A stretch of DNA of 20,429 bases. Source: an archaeon (GTDB taxonomy: Archaea > Iainarchaeota > Iainarchaeia > Iainarchaeales > CSSED10-239). This document shows positions 1 through 20,429 of this stretch, piece after piece (the first letter of the stretch is position 1; each line of letters begins with the position of its first letter). The DNA is taken from positions 1-20,429 of the forward strand of contig JBAYPN010000013.1 in NCBI GenBank assembly GCA_041677685.1, in the 5' to 3' direction. Position numbers and translations under genes: made by a program. Under the pieces are notes generated by a model that saw only the letters and a list, made by a program, of their open reading frames with translations, had not been told where the DNA came from and searched no databases.

Positions 1-111
1 TGTCATCTGTCTTTTTCTCATCAGACTTTTCTTTTATAACTTTCTTGTCATCTGTCTTTTTCTCATCAGACTTTTCTTTTATAACTTTCTTGTCATCAGA
101 CTTCTCTGCAG
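1..111. repeat. 45-bp tandem repeat: two identical copies at 1-45 and 46-90, plus a shortened third copy. It encodes the 15-aa unit DKKVIKEKSDEKKTD in the S3 C-terminal tail.
   Basis: Bases 1-45 and 46-90 are identical when read directly. The third copy (91-111) lacks an internal 15-nt segment. The array touches the window edge, so the copy number is unknown. Confidence 0.9.
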
Positions 112-760
112 AAACTTTTGTTTTCTCTAGTTCTTCTTCTTCCATTCTTATTTTAAAATCTTTTGCTAGAGCAGAAACATCTACCTTGTCACTAAACAAA
201 ACGTTTGGATTAACAATTCTTAAAGTTATCCCAATTGTTCCAAGACTAGGGAAGGTTGTTCTTTTCTCAATAGACACCAAGTCCTTTTGATCTCCAGCTT
301 TTTTTAAGTACCCAAAAAAGAAACGAGATTTTCTTTTTCTCTGCCCTTTTCCAGAAGTGTTTCCCTTTGCAATAATTTCAGCCCCAATTGCTCCAGCTTC
401 TTTAATTTGTCTTAAAGCCCCATAAACAACACTCTTCCAAGTCATGCCTCTAGCAATATTTGACTGAATTGATTCCATAATAACTTTTGGATCTAAATTT
501 TTGTTTGGGATTTCTCCAATCTCTATATGCACTTTATTAAATCCAAATTCTTTTTCTAAATCATCTGTAAGTGCTCTAATGTTTGAACCTTTCTTTCCAA
601 TTATAAATCCTGGTTTTAAAGCATAAATAATTACTCTTGTATGGAATGAAGTTTTTAAAATATCCACATCAATAAATCCTGCAGATTTTAATTTCTTTTT
701 AAGGTAGTTTGCAATTGATATCTTTTTAAGTTTATCTTTAATAAAAATATTTTCCTTCAC
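1..760 (-). CDS. rps3: 30S ribosomal protein S3 (uS3), 3'-partial; not in the ORF track because it runs off the window
   Basis: My own translation of the minus strand starts at GTG (760-758), 3 nt after the L22 stop: VKENIFIKDKLKKISIANYLKKKL...GFIIGKKGSNIRALTDDLEKEF (KH domain)...WKSVVYGALRQIKEAGAIGAEIIAKG. The reading frame is open to base 1. Its position after L22 matches the conserved operon order. Confidence 0.9.
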   Translation of the reverse strand, partial: MKENIFIKDKLKKISIANYLKKKLKSAGFIDVDILKTSFHTRVIIYALKPGFIIGKKGSNIRALTDDLEKEFGFNKVHIEIGEIPNKNLDPKVIMESIQSNIARGMTWKSVVYGALRQIKEAGAIGAEIIAKGNTSGKGQRKRKSRFFFGYLKKAGDQKDLVSIEKRTTFPSLGTIGITLRIVNPNVLFSDKVDVSALAKDFKIRMEEEELEKTKVSAEKSDDKKVIKEKSDEKKTDDKKVIKEKSDEKKTDD

Positions 761-763
761 AGC

Positions 764-1234
764 TTATTCCTCCAGAACAATAACTTCAATGTTTGTAGAC
801 TTTGATTCTCTTTGTTTTCCGCCAATTCTTCCTTGTGGTTGAGTTTTTCTTCTTGTAAGTCCTAAATTTGCATACATGTGGATTATTCTTAATTTAGTAA
901 CATCTAAATTTTTATCCTCAGCATTAGACTTTACGTCTTCTAAAAGTAAACCAACCTCTTTTGCTACATTGATTGGCCATCTACCAGTTGGAGTAAATCT
1001 TTTTGTTTGCCCTTTTCTATGAGCAACTTTTAATCTATATTTTACTAATGGTAAAAAGTCTTTTTTCTCTTTAATGTCGTTTGCAATTTTTATAGCTTTA
1101 GACAACATCATACCATTAAAGTAATTACAAAATTCTACAGAATATTTTGTAGAGATCTTTGCATTAGACTTGTATGCTTTTGCAATTCTTTTTTCATCAA
1201 CTTTTTTTTGAAAATTATAATTTATTGTAGTCAT
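764..1234 (-). CDS. rpl22: 50S ribosomal protein L22 (uL22)
   Basis: 156 aa. Archaeal L22-like sequence: AKISTKYSVEFCNYFNGMMLSKAI...KVAHRKGQ...GRWPINVAKEV. Lies between S19 and S3. Confidence 0.93.
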   Translation of the reverse strand: MTTINYNFQKKVDEKRIAKAYKSNAKISTKYSVEFCNYFNGMMLSKAIKIANDIKEKKDFLPLVKYRLKVAHRKGQTKRFTPTGRWPINVAKEVGLLLEDVKSNAEDKNLDVTKLRIIHMYANLGLTRRKTQPQGRIGGKQRESKSTNIEVIVLEE

Positions 1235-1248
1235 AATATTCTACCGCT

Positions 1249-1650
1249 TTACTTTCTTTCACTTATAGCAGTACTTGATTTTGTAGCACCAATACCTGCT
1301 TTTCCGTGTGTTAATCTTTTTCTAGTTAATACAAATTCACCTAAATAATGTCCAATCATCTCAGGCATAATAACAACTGGTTTAAACTCTTTACCACTAT
1401 ACACATAGATGGTTTTGTCAACCATCTTAGGAGTAACTATAGTGTCTCTTTTATGAGTCCTTATAGTCTTGTGATTTTGTAAATCTTTTTCAATTCTTTG
1501 ATAAAAAGGATCACTTTCATTTCTTTTTAAATTTCTTTTAGCTCTTGAGTTTGTTAGTTCAGAAAATTCCTTTAAAGACATTTTCTTTAGTTCTTCTAAG
1601 GTTTTTCCTCTATATCTAAAATCTGTATTTTCATCCATAACTAATATCAC
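1249..1650 (-). CDS. rps19: 30S ribosomal protein S19 (uS19)
   Basis: Contains FRYRGKTLEELKKMSLKEFSEL and GKEFKPVVIMPEMIGHYLGEFVLTRKRLTHGKAGIGATKSS. The track start at 1650 is GTG. An in-frame ATG at 1638 (MDENTDF...) is an alternative start. Confidence 0.93.
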   Translation of the reverse strand: MILVMDENTDFRYRGKTLEELKKMSLKEFSELTNSRAKRNLKRNESDPFYQRIEKDLQNHKTIRTHKRDTIVTPKMVDKTIYVYSGKEFKPVVIMPEMIGHYLGEFVLTRKRLTHGKAGIGATKSSTAISERK

Positions 1651-1651
1651 A

Positions 1652-2356
1652 TTATTTCTTCTTTCTACCAGTTCTTGTTGATGCTATTGCACCTACTTTT
1701 CTACCTGAAGGAGCATGTCTTGAAGTAGACTTAGAATGCCCAACATGATGTTGAAATCCACCAAATGGGTGGTCAACAGGATTCATAGCAACTCCTCTAA
1801 CTCTTGGATAAGGTTTACCTTTAGCTTTCATAGCATGGAACTTATTTCCAGCAGTAACAAATGGTTTACTTGTTCTTCCTGATGCTGCAACAAAACCAAT
1901 AGTTGCTCTTGCATTTAATGGAAAGGACTTTATTTTTCCTGATGCCATTTTTACAAGAACTTTATCTTTTCTACTAACTAAAGTTGCAGAACCACCAGTT
2001 GCTCTTATAAATTTTCCACCATCTCCAAAATTTCTTTCAATATTAAAGATTTGTGTTCCTGGGGAGATTTCATCTAAAAATAAAACATTACCAACTCTTT
2101 GGGCAGCACCTCTTCCAAACTCAACCTTGTCTCCAGTCTTAATTCCATTTGCACAAACTAAATTTTCAAAAGTACCATCACTTAAAAGAACTTTTGCAAC
2201 AGGAGCAGACCTGATTGGATCTGTGTACAATTCAATAACTTGACCTTTTACTAGTCCCTCATATTGTGAATATCTAATATCTACTTTGGCATTAAGTGTT
2301 GCTTTATATTTTGGAGAACCCTTTCCCCTTCTTTGTGATTTTAGTCTTCTTCCCAT
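1652..2356 (-). CDS. rpl2: 50S ribosomal protein L2 (uL2)
   Basis: 234 aa. MGRRLKSQRRGKGSPKYK...GVAMNPVDHPFGGFQHHVGHSKSTSRHAPSGRKVG is a canonical L2 C-terminus. Confidence 0.97.
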   Translation of the reverse strand: MGRRLKSQRRGKGSPKYKATLNAKVDIRYSQYEGLVKGQVIELYTDPIRSAPVAKVLLSDGTFENLVCANGIKTGDKVEFGRGAAQRVGNVLFLDEISPGTQIFNIERNFGDGGKFIRATGGSATLVSRKDKVLVKMASGKIKSFPLNARATIGFVAASGRTSKPFVTAGNKFHAMKAKGKPYPRVRGVAMNPVDHPFGGFQHHVGHSKSTSRHAPSGRKVGAIASTRTGRKKK

Positions 2357-2379
2357 AACAAAAACCTTAATTTATAAAT

Positions 2380-2655
2380 TTATAATACTCCTAATTTGTT
2401 TGCTACATCTTGAGCATTAGAAGTCTTAGCAAGAGTTACTAGTGCTTTTTTTCTATTTTTTCTGTCAAGTAAAACATTTACTGACTTTACCTTAACAGCA
2501 TACATTTTCTCAACTGCTTCTTTAATTTCTTTCTTATTAGCTTTCTTATTTACTATAAAAGTTAATCTGTTAGCTGTAGATATCAAGTCAACTGCTTTTT
2601 CTGTAATCACAGGATATTCTACAACATCATAAAATTCTAATTTTTTTGAAACCAT
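2380..2655 (-). CDS. rpl23: 50S ribosomal protein L23 (uL23)
   Basis: 91 aa. VVEYPVITEKAVDLISTANRLTFIVNKKANKKEIKEAVEKMYAVKVKSVNVL. Lies between L4 and L2. Confidence 0.9.
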   Translation of the reverse strand: MVSKKLEFYDVVEYPVITEKAVDLISTANRLTFIVNKKANKKEIKEAVEKMYAVKVKSVNVLLDRKNRKKALVTLAKTSNAQDVANKLGVL

Positions 2656-2656
2656 T

Positions 2657-3472
2657 TTAAATCACCTTAGAGAATCTCTCATTTAATTTCTCAATTGCGT
2701 TCTCTGTAAAGATTGTAAGTCTACCTGCATGTGTTCCAGGAGCAAGTTCTTTGATTGATAATTGTCTTGCTGAAACAACATCAACACCTTCAAGATTACC
2801 AATTGCTTTATGATTTTTGTTATCTCCTAAAACAACAAGTATACTTTTTCTTCTCTTATATCTTCTTCCTCTACCCTTTCCTTTTCCTGCTCTAATTGTT
2901 TTAGTTTCTTTTGCTCTTAGAATAGAGTCAGATAATCCAATTTTTTCTAATAGTTCAAAAACTTCTTTAGTTTTTACAAAGCTTTCAAACTTGTTATCAA
3001 TAATTATTGGAAAAGTTAGGTTTTCTGGAAGAGAATTACTTCTTAAACTAACTAAACTTAAATTTGCAGTTGCTGAAATTGCACTCAAGATTGCTTTTGT
3101 TCTTTCTTTTGAGTTGATCTTTTTTACTAAGATTTTTGCAACCTTTGGAGGATGTGCTCTTGGTCCACCAACAGCTTGGGAGATACCTGCAACCCTACCA
3201 GCCATCAAAGCACTTCTATTTTTTAATCTTGGAAGTCTTGCTTTACCAGTATTGATTGAAACGTTCATTTTGTTTGGTTTTCTAACACCCCTGTATTCAG
3301 CAGTATTTAATCTGTTTGAATATGGAGAGATTCCTTTTTTCTGATAAGATTTACTTTGAGAAGATATTACTGCTCTCTTTATCAGATCAGGTCTATATAT
3401 TTGTTCAAAGTAAGTAGGAAGTTCAATTTCCTTAATTATTTTCCCTTCTAAATTATAAACATTTGTTTTCAT
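2657..3472 (-). CDS. rpl4: 50S ribosomal protein L4 (uL4)
   Basis: MKTNVYNLEGKIIKEIELP... and RAGKGKGRGRRYKRRKSILVV are typical of archaeal L4. The track ORF begins at TTG 3487. In-frame ATGs at 3481 and 3472 are more likely starts. I chose 3472 because MKTNVYNLEG resembles archaeal L4 N-termini. Confidence 0.9.
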   Translation of the reverse strand: MKTNVYNLEGKIIKEIELPTYFEQIYRPDLIKRAVISSQSKSYQKKGISPYSNRLNTAEYRGVRKPNKMNVSINTGKARLPRLKNRSALMAGRVAGISQAVGGPRAHPPKVAKILVKKINSKERTKAILSAISATANLSLVSLRSNSLPENLTFPIIIDNKFESFVKTKEVFELLEKIGLSDSILRAKETKTIRAGKGKGRGRRYKRRKSILVVLGDNKNHKAIGNLEGVDVVSARQLSIKELAPGTHAGRLTIFTENAIEKLNERFSKVI

Positions 3473-3483
3473 AATAATCATTC

Positions 3484-4458
3484 TCAAATTATTTTAATAT
3501 CAGTTAGTTCTGTTTTACTTTTGTTTGGTCTTATAGCATCCCTAATAACAACAACTCTTTTAATAGAGCCAGGAACAGATCCAGAAACTACAGCATAATT
3601 GTTTTTAACAAGTCCATAGTTTGTAAATCCACCTTTTGGGTTTATCTTTGGATCATTACTAACAATTAATAGCTTTTTATTAAAAGTAGTTCTGTTGTGA
3701 AAACCATGTTGTCCAGCTCTTGGAACAGTGTACATTACAGTTGATGGGTTCCATGGCCCAATTGACCCAACATGCCTTTGTATCTGTTGAGCCTTTGGTC
3801 TTAAAATCTTAATTCCAAATCTTTTAACAGGACCAGTAAAACCATGTCCTTTAGTTACAGATTTTACATCTAAATAGGTGTCAATTTTAAAAACATCTTT
3901 AAAAGAAATAGTTTTTAAAAAATTTTCTTTCAAGTAATCAATTTTTGCTTGGTAAGTGCCTGAAAGTGGAACTTCAAAAATTATTGGTTTTTTTTGACCA
4001 GTAGAAGTCTTACTTTCATCCAAATATGCAATCAATGTTAAGTTAGAGGCTTTATCTTTACCTTCTATAAATTTATCAAGTTCAATTTTTTTTGTAGATT
4101 TTTTACCTTTTATTTTTCTAGAAACAAGATTATCAAAACTAATAAATTCATCTACAGTTGATTTTCCAAAGACAACATCATTATCCTTATAAAATCTAGC
4201 ACCAATTATCTTCAAATCAGGAGTTTCAATTATAGAGACAGGAACTGCAATTTCTTGACCATAGCTTGAAGAATTTTTATGGGCATTCTTTGCAAGTACT
4301 TGTGACATACCCACCTTTACTCCAAAGAAACAAAGAGGTTTTACTTCTCCCTTAGAGTCTTGATTTAAAAAATATTTATATTTTGGAACAATTGATTTTG
4401 CTCTTACTCTTGGATAAAAAGCCATTGACCCGGCTCTTGGTTTATATTTTCTAGGCAT
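3484..4458 (-). CDS. rpl3: 50S ribosomal protein L3 (uL3), first gene of the operon
   Basis: 324 aa. MPRKYKPRAGSMAFYPRVRA...TKGHGFTGPVKRFGIKILRPKAQQIQRHVGSIGPWNPSTVMYTVPRAGQHGFHNRT. Confidence 0.95.
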   Translation of the reverse strand: MPRKYKPRAGSMAFYPRVRAKSIVPKYKYFLNQDSKGEVKPLCFFGVKVGMSQVLAKNAHKNSSSYGQEIAVPVSIIETPDLKIIGARFYKDNDVVFGKSTVDEFISFDNLVSRKIKGKKSTKKIELDKFIEGKDKASNLTLIAYLDESKTSTGQKKPIIFEVPLSGTYQAKIDYLKENFLKTISFKDVFKIDTYLDVKSVTKGHGFTGPVKRFGIKILRPKAQQIQRHVGSIGPWNPSTVMYTVPRAGQHGFHNRTTFNKKLLIVSNDPKINPKGGFTNYGLVKNNYAVVSGSVPGSIKRVVVIRDAIRPNKSKTELTDIKII

Positions 4459-4756: not shown

Positions 4757-7402
4757 CTAAATTAAGTCTTCTCCCTTCCCTTTTTTCTTACTATTTTTAA
4801 AAATTACTTTTCCAGTATAAAAGATTACAAGAACAAATAACAAAATTAAAATAATTGATTTTATAGAGTTGCCCACACTATTAAAATTAAATAACCCAGT
4901 TATATAAAAATTCTTTTTAGAATCTAAAGTAATCTCTTTTGAAACAAGCAAAGATCCTGTCAAAGAATCAACAACTTTTAAAGTAGCTAAATAATTTGAG
5001 GATAGATCTTGATTAGAAAAAATTCTTAATTCAGAATCCACAAAGCTATTTGCAGGAACAACAATATTTCTATCTCCCTCAATTGTGAAATTTAAAGGTA
5101 ACTCTAAATCTAAATTTACACCTTTACTAACATCAGTATTATTTGATAACTTTAATTTAATTAAGTGAGAGGCAAACTTGTTATCATCACCAATTGTAGG
5201 AAAACTACTTGAAATCCTACTAGTTTGCACATCTAAAGAGATATCTTCATTTCCCACAACACTTTTAATAACTGTTGAAACTTTTGATATAACTTTATTG
5301 TCTACAACCACCTCAAAATCAACTGTCTTTTCTGTCTCACTATTTAGGTAACTGTCAGGTACACTAAATAAATAATTGATTTTTTTAATTTCTTTTCCTT
5401 CTATTATAAAGTCCTCTGTATAACTTAAATTACCCAGTTTTTCTTTAATATTAATTTCTGATTGGCTATTATAAATGTTCCAATCGTTTGGCAAACCTTT
5501 TACAACTAATTTAAATTCAGTTCCAACTTTATTTTCATTCTCAAGACTTACACTTGTAAGTATCTTGTTTTTAGAAATTAAAAAACTTGAAGGAAAGGAT
5601 GTAAAATTAATTTTATATTCATCTGCTTGATCAGGGGTTGATAAAACTAAATCAGTAAAGTATATTTCTTCTGAACAGCCCTCCAATTGAACTGCATAGT
5701 AGATCTTTTTAGAGGATCCAAAATTACTTGTAATTATGTTTCTAGAAATTGAATCATTTCCAGTTAAGAGAATTGAGGTAGTATTGAGTGTCAGACCATC
5801 TGAATATAATCTAATTATCCCTTTTTTATTTGTTTTGTTTTTAAAATTTAAATTGAAATTTAATTTAGGGTCGTCATTTGTTATTAGCTTAGAAGGGTAA
5901 TTTAAAATAAAATCACAAGAATTATTTTCATTGTCAGGATCAAAAATATTTGATTTTTCTAAAAAAAATCTTCCAACATAAGTGTCTGTATAATCACAAA
6001 AAGAACCATCTTGAAATTTACCTTTTAAAAGTAAATTAAAAAAACCATCTAAAGTTCCATTTACTCCAACTGTAATAACTTCACTAGAGTTTGCTTTTAT
6101 CTTTTTAGAGTCATCAACAACATTTACATTTACGCCTCTTCTGTTATCTACAAAAAAACCATCAGCAGTAAAGTCCATAGAGGTGTTGTTATAAACAACA
6201 ATTGTGTTTTCTCCATTTTCCACTCTTTGGCTTTCAAAACCAATAGATGAACATCTATTTTTTCCATCTAAAATATTTATTTTAAAATCAGAACTTATGT
6301 CTGAGTAAGTACAAGTTTTACCATTTTCAAAAGAACCAGTTAATGATATTTTACCAATTACTTTTTCTAAAGTTTCTACAGAAGAAGTGTCTAGAGTAAA
6401 GTTAATAAAACTTTTAAAGGTTGGTAAAAGAGAACTGTTGTTTAGTGACTTTTTAGTAATGTTTACAAATCTTGAATTGTCAGAAATGTTTATAAAATTA
6501 ATATTAAATTTTTTATTAGAATTGTTAATAACATAAAAACCATCTTCAGAAGAATAATCTTTAGAAGAATTTTCTAATTGTGAAATTGTTGATGTTTGGA
6601 TAACTATACCTTGACAATCTAAATCTTGAGAGCTATTTTCTAAATGGTCAAGGACTTTAATCTTAATTGGTTCTCTTAATACACAACGTTTGTCTTCTCT
6701 ACCTTCCCTTACCATGTAACCTTTAACATAAAGTTCTGACTTTTCAGTTTTGGAGTTATCAACTTTTTTAGAACTAACTCTTAACTTTATGTCTTTAGAT
6801 TCATCAAGATTTATTTTTCTTGGAAAATAACTTACTTGTGCATCATAGATTGAAGTGTCTTTTATTTTTGCTTCTTCAATTTTAAAATCATAATCTAAGG
6901 AAATATTTTTCAATTGTACATCAAAGGATTTCCAATCATCTTCATCCATTACAAAATCTGTGTTTTCAAATCTTAAATCTGAACAATTCGCAGTACTTTT
7001 GTTTTCTTTATTTTTAATATGGTAGTTTACTGTGTATTCTTTTTCACAAACTAAGTCCCCATATTTTCCTACAAGGTAGATATCAAAAAAAGAAGAAGTA
7101 TCTGAACTAACAGTATCAGAGGTAAAAAATAAATCTGCACTTCTTGTGGAGTAAGAGGGCACTGTAAAGGGATAGTTGATGTTATCTAAATCAAGATCAT
7201 TTAAAGGACCAGTAGTTATAGAGATTAAACTTAAAGGTTCCTCAATTGAATTCATAATAAAAAGATCATAAACAAAAGATCTGTCTTCATCAACATAGAT
7301 GTCAGTTTGTCCAGAGATTGAAAAGTCTGAACAATCAATTGCAATTATGTTTGCTGATAAAAAAATTATTACAAAAAATACTATAAAAAATTTATAATTC
7401 AT
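4757..7402 (-). CDS. Large secreted, membrane-anchored surface protein (S-layer/adhesin-like) built from Cys-bracketed repeat modules
   Basis: 881 aa. N-terminal signal-like helix MNYKFFIVFFVIIFLSANIIA. C-terminal TM SIILILLFVLVIFYTGKVIF followed by a basic tail KNSKKKGKG. By my hand count there are more than 20 N-x-S/T sequons. GGGAGAAGGGG sits just upstream of the ATG. Confidence 0.7.
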   Translation of the reverse strand: MNYKFFIVFFVIIFLSANIIAIDCSDFSISGQTDIYVDEDRSFVYDLFIMNSIEEPLSLISITTGPLNDLDLDNINYPFTVPSYSTRSADLFFTSDTVSSDTSSFFDIYLVGKYGDLVCEKEYTVNYHIKNKENKSTANCSDLRFENTDFVMDEDDWKSFDVQLKNISLDYDFKIEEAKIKDTSIYDAQVSYFPRKINLDESKDIKLRVSSKKVDNSKTEKSELYVKGYMVREGREDKRCVLREPIKIKVLDHLENSSQDLDCQGIVIQTSTISQLENSSKDYSSEDGFYVINNSNKKFNINFINISDNSRFVNITKKSLNNSSLLPTFKSFINFTLDTSSVETLEKVIGKISLTGSFENGKTCTYSDISSDFKINILDGKNRCSSIGFESQRVENGENTIVVYNNTSMDFTADGFFVDNRRGVNVNVVDDSKKIKANSSEVITVGVNGTLDGFFNLLLKGKFQDGSFCDYTDTYVGRFFLEKSNIFDPDNENNSCDFILNYPSKLITNDDPKLNFNLNFKNKTNKKGIIRLYSDGLTLNTTSILLTGNDSISRNIITSNFGSSKKIYYAVQLEGCSEEIYFTDLVLSTPDQADEYKINFTSFPSSFLISKNKILTSVSLENENKVGTEFKLVVKGLPNDWNIYNSQSEINIKEKLGNLSYTEDFIIEGKEIKKINYLFSVPDSYLNSETEKTVDFEVVVDNKVISKVSTVIKSVVGNEDISLDVQTSRISSSFPTIGDDNKFASHLIKLKLSNNTDVSKGVNLDLELPLNFTIEGDRNIVVPANSFVDSELRIFSNQDLSSNYLATLKVVDSLTGSLLVSKEITLDSKKNFYITGLFNFNSVGNSIKSIILILLFVLVIFYTGKVIFKNSKKKGKGEDLI

Positions 7403-7452
7403 AAAATAACCCCTTCTCCCAAAAATGAAAAAACTTTTTTAAAAATAAAAAA

Positions 7453-7821
7453 CTACTGCCAACTAAAAGTAAAGGCAGAATTGTCAACAACCATAGATAA
7501 GTTGTTTGGGTAATATCTATAAGTTGGATATGAGTATGAATAATAGGTTGTTGGGTAACCTGAATAAGTAGTCATACCAGTATATGGATTTACAGAATTG
7601 TAATATGGATTATAATAGTAGTTATTGTATGGATTGTAATAGTAGTTATTGTAGTAACTATCATATTGATTTACATAATTATAAGTGTAAGGGTAAGCAT
7701 ATGGATAATAACCAACATATGAATAGGAAGCATCTGTTATGTCAAAACTTCCTGCTGAAATTGTACCAAACAACGCTAAAAAAGAAACTAATCCAAATAA
7801 TATTAATATTTTTTTATTCAT
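7453..7821 (-). CDS. Secreted tyrosine/asparagine/proline-rich low-complexity protein
   Basis: 122 aa. Signal peptide MNKKILILFGLVSFLALFGTISA, then a core with about 31 Tyr in about 75 residues (YYPYAYPYTYNY...YNNYYYNPYNNYYYNPYYN). AGGGAGGA lies 8 nt upstream of the ATG. The stop is 50 nt upstream of the 881-aa gene on the same strand. Confidence 0.65.
   Translation of the reverse strand: MNKKILILFGLVSFLALFGTISAGSFDITDASYSYVGYYPYAYPYTYNYVNQYDSYYNNYYYNPYNNYYYNPYYNSVNPYTGMTTYSGYPTTYYSYSYPTYRYYPNNLSMVVDNSAFTFSWQ
7607..7654. repeat. 24-bp tandem duplication (22/24 identical) inside the Tyr-rich gene, encoding YNNYYYNP twice
   Basis: ggattataatagtagttattgtat (7607-7630) versus ggattgtaatagtagttattgtag (7631-7654). 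Confidence 0.85.
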
Positions 7822-7981
7822 AATAAATTCCTCCCTTTTTAGTTTTATATATTAAGTGACAAATAGTTTATAAAGGTATTTAATTAAGTAACTGAAGATA
7901 ATTACAGATACTTAAAAAAAGGTAAGGCTTTAAAAATATTCTATAATATATTTTATAGAAGGAACAACCAAGGTTATTTTT

Positions 7982-8368
7982 ATGGCAGACGAATCATCAG
8001 GAATATATCAGGATATTAAGGCATTACAGTCAAGCATATTGGTACTTAGACAAAAGATAAAATATCTAGTGCATAATGAAAAAATCCTTGGTAGAAACAT
8101 ATTAATCTTAAATAAAAAAATTGCATCTAAGACTACAAACAACAATTCTCAGAGTAGCCTCTCTGATGCTAAAGTTACAGAGATCTTAGAAAAGATAAAC
8201 AACATTGAATCTAAAATAAAAAATATTGAATCAAGTCTAGAGTTGTTTAGTAGAAGGTATGCAAAGGTAGATGACCTTAAGGAAATGAAATACATAATTG
8301 ATAACATCAATCCTTTAGAATACACAACAATTGAACAAGTAAAAAAATTAATTAAAGAAAATAAATAA
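7982..8368 (+). CDS. Hypothetical coiled-coil protein
   Basis: 128 aa. Heptad-like stretches (IKALQSSILVLRQKIKYL; EILEKINNIESKIKNIESSLELF) flank an N/S-rich linker. I recognise no family. Confidence 0.5.
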   Translation: MADESSGIYQDIKALQSSILVLRQKIKYLVHNEKILGRNILILNKKIASKTTNNNSQSSLSDAKVTEILEKINNIESKIKNIESSLELFSRRYAKVDDLKEMKYIIDNINPLEYTTIEQVKKLIKENK

Positions 8369-8371
8369 AAA

Positions 8372-8917
8372 CTATTTTTTAGAATTTAAGAAAAACCAAT
8401 AAGTTCCAAGAACAATTATTATTAAAAATAATCTAAATAAAAAGCCATGCACAAAATTTGCAAAGGAAAGATTAAATCTTACAATAATAAATGAAGTTAA
8501 ACTTATTCTGATTATGTTAAAGACAATCACAATTAATGTTGAGAAAAAAACCCACGTTAGTTTCTTTTTAATAGAGACACCAATTGTTGCAATGATTGCT
8601 GAGACAAGAATACTAAACTCTAAGATGCCTGTGCATAGGTTGGTTATTATAATTGGATAACTTAAACTTGAAACCTCAATAATTGAATTGTTAATTAGAA
8701 AATAAAATTTAGAATCAATTCCAAAAACAGAATTTAAAATGAAATTAGAAAGACTTCCAAAAAAGTAATTTATGTAATTGTAAATAATTGGAATATTTAG
8801 AAATAAATAAACTAAAGAAAAAGAAATTAAAAAAAATAAAAGAAAATTATAAGATGACCTTACTTTCTTTTTATTCTTTAAATCTGATTTTAAATTTTTT
8901 AAAAATTTATTAAACAT
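8372..8917 (-). CDS. Minimal exosortase/archaeosortase-family membrane protein (putative transpeptidase)
   Basis: 181 aa and polytopic. Three motifs occur in the order expected for the exosortase/archaeosortase core: ITNLC95TGILEF (Cys), FNIIR137ISL (Arg), FVH157GFLF (His). Each lies at a predicted helix end. The Cys-to-Arg spacing is 42 aa. The ATG is 8 nt after the rps8e stop, preceded by GAAGG. Confidence 0.6.
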   Translation of the reverse strand: MFNKFLKNLKSDLKNKKKVRSSYNFLLFFLISFSLVYLFLNIPIIYNYINYFFGSLSNFILNSVFGIDSKFYFLINNSIIEVSSLSYPIIITNLCTGILEFSILVSAIIATIGVSIKKKLTWVFFSTLIVIVFNIIRISLTSFIIVRFNLSFANFVHGFLFRLFLIIIVLGTYWFFLNSKK

Positions 8918-18514: not shown

Positions 18515-20429
18515 TTAATATAGTTTTTCATTCTTATATCTTTCAAAATCACTTGTTTCTTTTTTAGAATCATTTTTAGAATCATTAGCCTTTTCAAAGT
18601 CTTTGCTATTAAATATTTTTATATTCTTTGAAGGGTTTGTTTTTTCTTGGAGATTATTGTTTTTTATGTCATCTAAAATCTGTTGCTTTCTAAGATCTTT
18701 TTCTTGAAAATACTTTTCTTGAGAATCTTTTTTATCTTTTGGTTCTTTTTTCTTTTTTGTGATTTTTAGGATCAACAAAATTATTAGGATGATGTTAATT
18801 ATTATTACACCTAGTAAGATAAAACCTAGGATCTTTTGTTTACTAGTCATTGCCTTATATTCTTGAGTTTGGCTACCAATGATTATTGTTCCTGATAATG
18901 GAGTGATGTCTAAAGAATAGATTCTATTTTCTTCTGTTGACTCTGTGTGCTTTAATCTTAATAACATCTCTTGGTCGTTAATAACATAGTATGAGATGAT
19001 GTCTTTTGGGGAAAGATTATTTTCCTCTAACCATTTCCTGCTTACAGAGAACTCTAGTTCTGTACGATTAATCTTATCTTTGTTTGTAAGGTCAATAACA
19101 AAAGTGCTGTAGACTTTATCTAAGTATTTTAGCTCTAGGTTATAATCTGTTTGCTCTGCTTTTGAAACACTGATGTTAGAGTCTAATAGATCATTTGCAA
19201 AAATATTTAGCTTAGATAAAGAAACTCCTTCTAGAGAGAATAGCACATCTGAACTGTAAGTGTTTTTATTTAAGTTTTGTAAACTATAGATCATTGTGGT
19301 TTTGTCTTGGTGGATTAATATTAAAGTTGTTTCTAAAGTTTGTTTGGTTATTGGCTCTGGAATTACAATCTCTGGAAGTAAGAATGTGTAATTGTAATTT
19401 ACAACATCACTATAGCCTAAACTTAACTTGTAACATCTTATTTTTAGATTTGTATTTTTATCTAAAAATATTGGAGTTGTAAATAGGCTTTTGTTTTTAT
19501 CAGGGGTTGTGCCATCTGTTGTGTAGTATACACTTGAACCAAGAGTCTCACAACTTAAAGTTACAGTTATTGGAGTTGTGTAATTTCCTGAAAGTACACT
19601 TGCTTGTGGAGTTGCTATAGTATAAGTTGGAGGAGGTGAACCACCACCGCCTGAGCCACCACCTGAGCCACCTCCACCTGGTGGTGAGGAGTTTAGATTA
19701 ATGGTGTAATTATAAATAGAAATATTACTATCTTTATAATCTTCTTTATAAGCAACAGCATATAGATTTTTAGAACTACTAATATTTATTGGAGAAGTGT
19801 AAAGGGTACTGTTTTTATCAGGAGAGGAATTATCAAATGAATAGTAGATGGTAGCATCAAGTGTATCTGTTGAAAGTGAAACATCTATCTTTGAGGTGTA
19901 GGTTCCTGAGTTTTTGTTAGCAACTACTTTTGCAACTTCAAAATCATAAATATTTTGTAAAATCTGTGAATTTTTATCTTTTGTAAATATCTGTGATCTA
20001 ACTAAAGTTTTTTTATTTACAGTAAAAGGACTTTCATAAAGTATTGTGCCTTCTTGAGTTGGCTTTGGGTCATTTCCATCTATAGTATAATAAATATCTC
20101 CTATTAAGTTTTCATTTGTTAGAGTAACTTTTATATCATTATTATAAACACCTGAGATTGGGCTTGCAACCGGAGGACTAATTGAGTCAGTTATGCTGTA
20201 ATTCCTTGTAACAACTGAACTTGGAGTCATACCACTCTTAAAAGCTTTAGCCTTGATGGTGGTTGTGCTTGTTAGACTAAAAGGGCCTGTGTAAAGGTTA
20301 CTCTGCTCAGTTGGAACAGAGCTATCAGTTGTGTAGTAAATCATTGCATTTGCAGTCTCACTTGTCATGCTCACACCCACTGAAGAAAAATAATTTCCTG
20401 AAGCCGGAGAGACAACAGGTGAAGAAACA
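18515..20429 (-). CDS. Large surface protein, 5'-partial: tandem chitobiase/hexosaminidase-C-like (CHB_HEX_C / Fn3-associated) repeats, G/S/P linker, PGF-pre-PGF-like domain, TM helix, charged cytoplasmic tail
   Basis: At least 4 repeats of the pattern SG.Y...i.V.L.....a.IYYT.DGs.P...S.lY..P. The frame stays open from 20380 to 20429 (..VSSPVVSPASGNYFSSVGVSMTSE..), which is the start of a repeat unit. The track M at 20380 is therefore an internal GTG. TM: ILGFILLGVIIINIILIILLILKI. Confidence 0.75.
   Translation of the reverse strand, partial: VSSPVVSPASGNYFSSVGVSMTSETANAMIYYTTDSSVPTEQSNLYTGPFSLTSTTTIKAKAFKSGMTPSSVVTRNYSITDSISPPVASPISGVYNNDIKVTLTNENLIGDIYYTIDGNDPKPTQEGTILYESPFTVNKKTLVRSQIFTKDKNSQILQNIYDFEVAKVVANKNSGTYTSKIDVSLSTDTLDATIYYSFDNSSPDKNSTLYTSPINISSSKNLYAVAYKEDYKDSNISIYNYTINLNSSPPGGGGSGGGSGGGGSPPPTYTIATPQASVLSGNYTTPITVTLSCETLGSSVYYTTDGTTPDKNKSLFTTPIFLDKNTNLKIRCYKLSLGYSDVVNYNYTFLLPEIVIPEPITKQTLETTLILIHQDKTTMIYSLQNLNKNTYSSDVLFSLEGVSLSKLNIFANDLLDSNISVSKAEQTDYNLELKYLDKVYSTFVIDLTNKDKINRTELEFSVSRKWLEENNLSPKDIISYYVINDQEMLLRLKHTESTEENRIYSLDITPLSGTIIIGSQTQEYKAMTSKQKILGFILLGVIIINIILIILLILKITKKKKEPKDKKDSQEKYFQEKDLRKQQILDDIKNNNLQEKTNPSKNIKIFNSKDFEKANDSKNDSKKETSDFERYKNEKLY

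Follow-up and report, generated by a model that had tools for sequence, protein, structure and literature searches.

Sequence features of the tyrosine-rich gene

The analysed stretch of DNA (hereafter the window) comprised 20,429 nucleotides (nt) and represented an entire contig, C13 (JBAYPN010000013.1), of the archaeal assembly GCA_041677685.1 (Iainarchaeota; Iainarchaeales; CSSED10-239). The genome is 792 kb long, is distributed over 56 contigs, has a G+C content of 27% and is 88% complete. The subject of the analysis was a reverse-strand gene for a 122-amino-acid (aa) tyrosine-rich protein, P0001, which is predicted to be exported and which lies directly upstream of the gene for an 881-aa surface protein, P0002. 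The same genus includes G004 (CP045477.1), Candidatus Forterrea multitransposorum. Forterrea was described as a DPANN archaeon (Diapherotrites/Iainarchaeota) of a deep subsurface aquifer whose metabolism is minimal and whose lifestyle is predicted to be symbiotic (PMC5905446), and the surface layer (S-layer) goes unmentioned in that genome paper. The family alignment used below consisted of 14 members, and the reading frames were compared in nine orthologous loci. The gene and its features were assigned as follows:

7453-7821, reverse strand: gene for the 122-aa Tyr-rich, putatively exported protein P0001, stop codon included; stop-free translation and the only open frame in the nine orthologues
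7753-7821, reverse strand: putative signal peptide, residues 1-23, read from the sequence as MNKK, then hydrophobic ILILFGLVSFLALFGT, then ISA, with cleavage before G
7708-7746, reverse strand: conserved motif 1 at the mature N-terminus, FDITDASYSYVGY; consensus F-D-[IV]-T-D-x-S-Y-S-Y-[VL]-[SG]
7507-7725, reverse strand: Tyr-rich low-complexity core, residues 33-105 (Y/N/P/S/T; no K, E or C), defined by composition; AlphaFold predicted local distance difference test (pLDDT) score of 30-36
7604-7653, strand not assigned: 24-bp tandem duplication (Tandem Repeats Finder: period 24, 2.1 copies, 96% matches)
7576-7593, reverse strand: conserved motif 2, VNPYTG; consensus [IV]-N-P-Y-T-G, with Y80 and G82 invariant in 14 sequences
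7456-7506, reverse strand: conserved motif 3 at the C-terminus, NNLSMVVDNSAFTFSWQ; consensus N-x-[ILV]-S-Y, loop, [VLF]-[ST]-F-[ST]-W-Q
7830-7835, reverse strand: Shine-Dalgarno sequence GGGAGG, 8 nt before the ATG, read from the sequence

The open reading frame (ORF) quoted in the original prediction was translated without a stop into the 122-aa protein, and its extreme tyrosine content was borne out. All 31 tyrosines are located between Y33 and Y103, and they account for 44% of this 71-residue core and 31% of the 99-residue mature part, which further consists of Asn (13%), Ser (11%), Thr (9%), Pro (8%), Gln (2%) and Ile and Leu (1% each). The mature protein is devoid of Lys, Glu, His and Cys and contains a single Ile and a single Arg, whereas the proteome averages are 4.4% for Tyr, 10.9% for Lys and 10.2% for Ile. 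The binomial probability of at least 31 Tyr in 99 residues was 2e-18, and that of a complete lack of Lys was 1e-5. P0001 had the highest Tyr content among all ORFs of at least 50 aa in the genome; no paralogue was found there, and no other ORF came near its Tyr content. A genome-wide search for the three family motifs identified the P0001 gene only and yielded no shared C-terminal sorting tag.

The N-terminus has the appearance of the predicted Sec signal peptide cleaved after ISA, with a basic n-region, a hydrophobic h-region and small residues at positions -1 and -3, as judged by reading and not by a score. A helix was modelled by AlphaFold at residues 3-21 (pLDDT 76-81), and the alanine at -1 and I/V/L at -3 of the putative cleavage site align across the 14 members. 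Neither P0001 nor the 13 other aligned members contain cysteine, and hence no lipobox of a lipoprotein is present. The protein ends with FTFSWQ and has no hydrophobic helix at this end, which distinguishes it from archaeosortase substrates of the PGF-CTERM and related types, and no membrane helix or coiled coil was detected after the signal peptide. As a lipobox, a membrane helix and an archaeosortase-type signal are all missing, the exported protein would be either free or held non-covalently. An N-glycosylation sequon near the C-terminus is conserved in some members of the family, not in all of them.

The C-terminal segment had been regarded as an ordinary tail, but the alignment identified it as one of three conserved family motifs, with W121 invariant and N106 and F119 nearly invariant. 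In motif 1, Y33 and S34 are invariant, and F26, D27, T29, D30 and Y35 are nearly so. The 24-bp duplication codes for NNYYYNPY twice; the closest relative carries a diverged version that is one codon shorter, and the duplication is therefore recent, as was originally supposed. The Shine-Dalgarno sequence was confirmed, and a purine-rich GAGG/GGAGG block occupies the equivalent position in the orthologues. The share of TAC among the Tyr codons of the gene was 39% versus 20% genome-wide (P = 0.015). Translational selection was considered as a cause and rejected, since the ribosomal-protein genes show no TAC preference, and no inference on expression was drawn.

Conservation and selection

The relatives used for comparison were seven Candidatus Forterrea species, a sister genus (G013), genus g2 (G007), genera g3 and g4, and metagenome contigs. 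The closest of them, L038, is an 8.3-kb metagenome contig from ENA with a gene order identical to that of the window. A single-protein search of 61 related genomes returned full-length, stop-free matches in five other Forterrea species, four of them at E <= 2e-5 and one (G006) only at E = 0.1, together with a partial match in the neighbouring genus (G013). With a profile search of 196 genomes, strong full-length matches were obtained in 7 of 7 Forterrea species and in G013. P0001 itself matched the profile at E = 7e-33 and possesses every family element: the signal peptide, the three motifs, the Lys-free core and the genomic position. An exhaustive HMMER profile search of 1.84 billion representative proteins identified eight matches, all of the same architecture and 115-130 aa in length, apart from one 37-aa fragment. 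A word-indexed search of 5.8 billion proteins gave one match.

In the nine loci the annotated frame alone is open, and each of the other five frames contains 4-28 stops. The comparison of P0001 with its L038 orthologue (91.7% identity) yielded a synonymous divergence (dS) of 0.37 and a nonsynonymous divergence (dN) of 0.039, i.e., a dN/dS of 0.106. For the same pair of loci, dN/dS was 0.075 for L3, 0.066 for S8e, 0.13 for the archaeosortase-like gene and 0.19 for the large surface protein (76% identity). The small gene gave a dN/dS of 0.14 between G004 and G005. Since the value for P0001 is close to those of L3 and S8e, its low-complexity core is as constrained as a ribosomal protein. At the invariant Tyr columns, TAT and TAC are swapped synonymously among species. 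These data indicate that the Tyr-rich ORF is a genuine gene under purifying selection. The lack of a Tyr-rich ORF at this place in related genomes, or a broken frame, had been named as the outcome that would speak against the prediction; the ORF was found intact in all seven Forterrea species, in G013 and in the metagenome relatives.

The composition had been said to belong to no described archaeal family, and the searches of Pfam, NCBIfam and PDB indeed returned no sequence match for P0001. A full-text literature search gave no relevant paper on tyrosine-rich secreted proteins of archaea. Within the searched literature and databases, the Tyr-rich family is thus undescribed, restricted to one lineage and without a known homologue.

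Family anatomy, tyrosine spacing and predicted structure

The 14 sequences share the same layout, consisting of the signal peptide, motif 1, a variable core, the central NPYTG and the C-terminal motif. The mature part spans 89-110 residues. The core varies in length and sequence, while Tyr always constitutes 27-34% and Lys is always absent. The tyrosines are evenly distributed: Tyr-free gaps of at least seven residues were observed 4 times versus 42.7 expected, adjacent YY pairs were depleted (z = -3.8), and the Y-x-x-Y pattern was doubled (112 observed versus 57.9 expected, z = 7.7), although these z-scores were computed on related members and are indicative only. In G013 and G007, Asn is largely swapped for Gly, while Tyr stays constant.

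G007, the representative of genus g2, carries at the orthologous position (L034:1983-2423) an ORF of 146 aa that includes a signal peptide and is rich in Tyr (24%) and Gly (15%). The family profile picked up no more than the signal-peptide end of this ORF (positions 1-40, E = 0.003); the C-terminus of the ORF (…IGVSYRNPGSISVYYKG) is loosely similar to the hairpin of the family. When 5.8 billion proteins were searched for this type of Tyr/Gly protein, only the query itself was found. The presence of a Tyr/Gly-rich ORF in a third genus, missed by the profile beyond its signal-peptide end, suggests that selection holds composition rather than sequence.

AlphaFold2 run on an alignment of six sequences returned pLDDT values below 50 for residues 27-122 of P0001. 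A weak beta-hairpin was modelled at 107-112 and 115-120 with low confidence (pLDDT 43-47). The mature protein is accordingly predicted to be disordered, with no fold of the monomer. We also considered whether the small gene arose by partial duplication of the large gene at its 5' end, as both mature proteins start with an FD..SY-like sequence. The hhalign probability of 92.7% was obtained only when the signal peptides were included; after their removal, the E-value was 0.03-0.3 and the probability dropped below 2%, which ruled this idea out.

Promoter, spacer and gene neighbourhood

The following features flank the Tyr-rich gene:

7867-7885, reverse strand: promoter element AATTAAATACCTTTATAAA with a TATA box TTTATAAA at 7867-7874, 45 nt upstream of the ATG; invariant in nine orthologous upstream regions
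7403-7452, reverse strand: 50-nt spacer to the surface-protein gene, with T-runs right after the stop codon and GGGAGAAGGGG (7410-7420) before the next ATG
4757-7402, reverse strand: P0002, 881-aa surface protein in which a signal peptide and about eight beta-sandwich domains precede the I-T-G-L-F motif, the membrane helix (845-872) and the Lys-rich tail
7982-8368, forward strand: divergent gene for a 128-aa cytoplasmic coiled-coil-like protein, between the archaeosortase gene and the surface operon; conserved in five genera
8372-8917, reverse strand: exosortase/archaeosortase-family protein, 181 aa (NCBIfam TIGR04178 at E = 3e-10, above the cut-off; ArtD at E = 1e-6, below the cut-off)

The gene order S8e, archaeosortase-family gene, small opposite-strand genes, Tyr-rich gene, surface protein and L3 operon is common to the seven Forterrea species, G013 and L038. 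The Tyr-rich gene is always located immediately upstream of the large gene and on the same strand. Between it and the archaeosortase-family gene lie one to three small opposite-strand genes for non-secreted proteins, which always include the conserved 128-aa coiled-coil-like one.

The nine upstream regions in which the 19-nt promoter element (AATTA.A.AC.TTTATAAA) is invariant come from three genera. The element occurs once in the window versus 0.03 occurrences expected, and it is present at every locus carrying the small gene. Within the pair of the small and the large gene, the conserved TATA element is found only upstream of the small gene. In G011, which is devoid of the small gene, the same promoter core TTTATAAACTATTT (ACATTTATAAACTATTT) directly precedes the large gene. 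The distance of 50 nt between the two genes given in the original prediction was exact. The spacer is not conserved; its length ranges from 27 to 50 nt across eight loci that carry the family gene and reaches 99 nt in G007, and it contains the Shine-Dalgarno sequence of the large gene. In G004 and G005 the spacer of 27-28 nt is too short for a separate promoter of the large gene. The conserved adjacency, the promoter in front of the small gene only and the spacers of down to 27 nt all argue for a single unit, as had been supposed, and we infer an operon that opens with the Tyr-rich gene and continues into the surface-protein gene.

A run of 5-8 T residues directly follows the stop codon of the small gene in most orthologous loci, with the exception of G004 and G005. 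By inference only, such a run could act as a leaky archaeal terminator, leading to an excess of the small transcript and tuning the relative amounts of the two products.

In genera g3 and g4, the large gene directly follows the coiled-coil gene, and the gaps of 107-188 nt cannot hold a Tyr-rich ORF. The 128-aa coiled-coil-like protein retains its sequence and position in all five genera of the family and is 92% identical to that of the closest relative. Its dN/dS in this comparison (0.05) made it the most constrained component of the module, and no Pfam or NCBIfam match above the cut-off was obtained for it. Several of the relatives carry, between the archaeosortase-like and the coiled-coil genes, one or two additional small genes that are very basic and rich in Lys and that are absent from the window, at the following positions:

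L012:9984-10665, L010:7852-8163, L029:1303-1884 and L030:861-1694: extra Lys-rich genes in relatives

The remaining content of the contig is archaeal and includes the ribosomal-protein cluster L3-L4-L23-L2-S19-L22-S3 (2-4458, reverse strand), L1/P0/P1 (13215-14978, reverse strand), S8e, Cgi121, a Hef-type helicase and nuclease, and enolase.

The large surface protein and the archaeosortase-family gene

The AlphaFold2 model of P0002, based on ten sequences, had a mean pLDDT of 74.4 and was all-beta, with about eight sandwich domains followed by a linker and the membrane helix. Foldseek returned only generic arrays of the Ig/MG/ASH type with TM-scores of at most 0.18, and the S-layer protein SbsB appeared at rank 50. 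A relationship of P0002 to S-layer proteins was therefore not demonstrable by the fold search. The protein contains 23 N-x-S/T sequons versus 14.4 expected and five Cys pairs, and no Pfam or NCBIfam family was matched. Seven relatives were found among 5.8 billion proteins, and orthologues were present in 21 of the 22 genomes of the family, with the surface protein measuring about 0.9-1.08 thousand residues in the related loci. P0002 looks like the main envelope protein of the cell.

The archaeosortase-family gene lies 550 nt from the Tyr-rich gene and is syntenic in all related loci examined. Throughout the five genera of the family, this 181-aa 'mini' version is invariably encoded after rps8e. 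P0002 is an obvious candidate substrate of the archaeosortase-like protein because it combines an [IL]-[TS]-G-[FL]-F motif with a membrane helix and a Lys-rich tail. Another candidate substrate is encoded at the end of the contig:

18515-20428, reverse strand: 637-aa surface protein running off the contig end, with four CHB_HEX_C/Fn3_assoc repeats, a Gly/Ser/Pro linker, L-G-F before the membrane helix and a long Lys-rich cytoplasmic tail

It gave a weak match to the PGF-pre-PGF domain (E = 4e-5, below the cut-off).

P0002 and its L038 counterpart P0012 (875 aa, 76% identical) lack an N-terminal domain of about 160 residues, and the alignment with other members starts at residue 162. This domain is present in six of the six other Forterrea species and in most other members, some matches being partial or cut by contig ends. 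In P0002 and P0012, the signal peptide joins directly to the first Cys-bracketed module. As the loss was seen in two independent assemblies, it is lineage-specific and not an assembly artefact. The idea that the small protein acts solely by binding this domain was rejected, since the domain is lost here while the small gene is kept with a dN/dS of 0.1.

A candidate cohesive component of the envelope

We propose that P0001 may be a non-covalent, multivalent cohesive or adhesive component of the envelope and a partner of the surface protein, and we consider the chances of this interpretation to be evenly poised. The matrix or cement role suggested in the original prediction appears to be its most reasonable reading, considering the putative export and the probable unit with the surface-protein gene. 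The protein would be exported by Sec and cleaved after ISA, with no membrane anchor or archaeosortase signal. The resulting chain of about 99 residues would be disordered, Lys-free and low in net charge, with about 30% evenly spaced Tyr. Its tyrosines could serve as 'stickers' and the N, S, T, P and G residues as 'spacers', allowing self-association as in prion-like low-complexity domains, and a cohesive phase (a gel, coat or 'mortar') could thus be formed at the cell surface. The conserved beta-strand motifs at both ends might dock P0001 on the surface protein or polymerise it end to end. Export, cleavage, co-transcription, self-association, binding to the surface protein and the biological role (cohesion and/or host attachment) are all proposals.

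In a study of prion-like domains (10.1101/2021.01.01.425046), Tyr was reported as the most potent sticker, cohesion as being weakened by Lys and by net charge, and the stickers as placed at regular intervals, with valence and patterning rather than sequence preserved in evolution. A self-associating surface material was proposed because the number and spacing of Tyr, the interchangeable spacers, the lack of Lys and the low charge of the family match these rules. Several points weigh against this interpretation. The content of Tyr (about 30%) and Pro is far beyond that of characterised prion-like domains, which makes the transfer of the rules uncertain. The low AlphaFold confidence obtained with a six-sequence alignment is no proof of disorder. 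The T-run following the stop codon in most loci could end some of the transcripts, and co-transcription is itself deduced from the arrangement of the genes. Finally, the small protein is not essential for the large surface protein, because genera g3 and g4 have the large protein alone.

Among the other explanations, that of a functional amyloid or fibre fares best, although we regard it as rather unlikely. According to it, the Y/N core forms a cross-beta structure, or the N-terminal strand of one subunit pairs with the C-terminal hairpin of the next in a head-to-tail fibre or sheath. The composition, rich in Y and N and poor in charges, resembles that of yeast and archaeal candidate prion domains (10.1101/2020.07.20.212902), and it agrees in part with a prion-like, Q/N-rich domain in the sense of PLAAC (rich in Q/N/Y/G/S, poor in charged and aliphatic residues). 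The lack of a predicted monomer fold and the weakly modelled C-terminal beta-hairpin would agree with this explanation, and the focus of conservation on the extreme mature N- and C-termini fits an end-to-end assembly. On the other hand, prolines recur at intervals of about 10 residues and make up 8% of the mature part, and the length and sequence of the core vary freely among species. The strand-turn-strand imperfect repeats of curli or Fap are missing, the sole repeat being the one 8-residue duplication; neither nucleator nor secretion accessory genes were found nearby, and no similarity to amyloid families was detected in Pfam or PDB.

P0001 could also be a non-structural protein, i.e., an assembly helper acting as a chaperone-like partner during export or a Tyr-rich adhesin binding glycans or the host, which seems improbable to us. 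The position of the gene at the head of the putative operon with the surface protein is compatible with both roles. Aromatic residues stack on sugars, and P0002 is rich in sequons. Genera g3 and g4 do without the gene, and the predicted symbiotic lifestyle of Forterrea (PMC5905446) would also suit such a function. However, no feature singles out these roles, and the small protein is strongly conserved where the large protein has lost its N-terminal domain, and is thus independent of that domain.

A covalent wall or coat of dityrosine or isodityrosine, in which an oxidase or peroxidase welds the tyrosines as in CotC/CotU of B. subtilis, plant extensins or resilin, is very unlikely. The 31 Tyr in 99 mature residues would provide an ample substrate, and the extreme Tyr content and the extracellular site recall CotC and CotU, two proteins that form high-mass assemblies (PMC7944565). 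Nevertheless, multicopper oxidase (PF07732) was not found in this genome, and haem peroxidase (PF00141) and DyP peroxidase (PF04261) were not found in any of the seven Forterrea genomes, which are 83-94% complete, so that the absence of a gene is likely and not certain. The positive controls for the peroxidase searches worked, whereas the search for tyrosinase (PF00264) gave no match here and none in the control genomes either, and so carries no information. As neither the oxidase nor the peroxidases were found, and as the organism is a DPANN archaeon of minimal metabolism inhabiting a subsurface aquifer (PMC5905446), the dityrosine cross-linking put forward in the original prediction is disfavoured. 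The absence of Lys from P0001 also argues against it. Oxidation might still be brought about by the host or abiotically.

According to the last explanation, the ORF arose by chance, is a low-complexity stretch that expanded neutrally under AT bias, or encodes a leader peptide whose Tyr codons do no more than regulate the downstream gene. It is suggested by the low G+C content, the AT-rich codons TAT and AAT and the slippage growth evident from the 24-bp repeat, but it was refuted by the comparative data: dN/dS is 0.11-0.14 with a single open frame in the nine loci, Lys and Ile codons, although equally AT-rich, are nearly missing from the 99 residues (0 Lys, 1 Ile), two lineages have Gly (GGN) in place of Asn, conservation at the protein level extends to the signal peptide and the three motifs, and the ORF of 115-146 codons is long for a leader, attenuation leaders having 14-30 codons.

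The interpretation of P0001 as a cohesive envelope component may be narrowed further. It could be a dedicated second envelope component of DPANN archaea, a Lys-free chain with about 30% Tyr which docks or polymerises head to tail by its conserved terminal beta-strands and condenses into a non-covalent Tyr-zipper gel, cementing the Ig-like array and/or gluing the symbiont to its host; taken as a whole, this detailed version is unlikely. If it were true, P0001 would be a prokaryotic, extracellular counterpart of the eukaryotic prion-like condensate or adhesive proteins. Very little has been learned so far of envelope building and host attachment in DPANN archaea, whose cells are tiny, mostly uncultured and probably symbiotic. 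P0001 is small, unusual and strongly constrained, appears to head the operon of the main surface protein and has no relatives beyond one narrow lineage. Should it be an envelope 'mortar' or adhesive, it would represent the first case in archaea of an extracellular low-complexity material of the sticker type, would offer a handle for labelling or enriching Forterrea cells and would provide biomaterials research with a simple, oxidation-independent Tyr-based adhesive sequence. The family also implies that selection can hold composition (about 30% Tyr, no Lys) while the sequence drifts past profile detection, which bears on metagenome searches.

Comparison with known systems

The general kind of protein to which P0001 belongs, i.e., a Tyr-rich low-complexity extracellular structural protein, is already known from other domains of life. 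The spore-coat proteins CotC and CotU of B. subtilis have a very high content of Lys and Asp as well, belong to a coat whose cross-linking is linked to SodA and a peroxidase and, being synthesised in the mother cell, lack a signal peptide. The Forterrea family contains no Lys, no peroxidase or laccase was found in the searches described above, and no homology to these proteins exists. The likeness lies in small size, a very high Tyr content and deposition outside the cell body in a protective layer (PMC7944565).

The arrangement of a large surface-protein gene with an adjacent small partner gene, probably co-transcribed, resembles that of SlaA and SlaB in Sulfolobales. SlaB is a membrane-anchored coiled-coil stalk. 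Here, P0002 itself bears the membrane anchor, and the small partner has no anchor, coiled coil or predicted fold, so that the membrane helix and coiled coil of a stalk are both missing from P0001. The genes at the Forterrea locus are adjacent and share a conserved promoter, and the large protein is modelled as a beta-sandwich array.

Like curli CsgA, the sheath protein MspA of Methanosaeta/Methanospirillum and the archaeal candidate prion domains (10.1101/2020.07.20.212902), P0001 is a putatively secreted, N/Y-rich protein with few charges and no stable monomer predicted. Unlike the CsgA and MspA amyloids, it has no imperfect strand-loop-strand repeats or accessory genes and contains frequent Pro. 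No homology to curli, Fap, TasA or MspA was detected, and the neighbouring genes encode the archaeosortase-like protein, the coiled-coil protein, S8e and the surface protein.

The glycine-rich proteins and extensins of plants and the GYYPTSPQQ repeats of high-molecular-weight glutenin are extracellular structural sequences that combine Tyr with Pro, Gly, Ser or Thr in YP, YYPT-like and beta-turn-forming motifs. The plant proteins are long and regularly repetitive, many of them being oxidatively cross-linked, whereas P0001 has about 100 residues, is barely repetitive, has conserved termini and belongs to another domain of life, with no homology. The Gly/Tyr-rich variants of G013 and G007 come close to them in composition.

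The prion-like domains of the FUS/hnRNPA1 type differ from P0001 in that the latter is archaeal, putatively extracellular, equipped with a Sec signal peptide and composed of about 30% Tyr with almost no Gln or Arg. P0001 also has conserved, structured-looking end motifs and neither an RNA-binding context nor homology to these domains. The low-complexity domain of hnRNPA1 contains 7 Tyr and 12 Phe (10.1101/2021.01.01.425046). P0001 and the FUS/hnRNPA1-type domains have in common the predicted disorder, the even distribution of Tyr stickers among polar spacers, the lack of Lys, the low net charge and the conserved number and spacing of the stickers.

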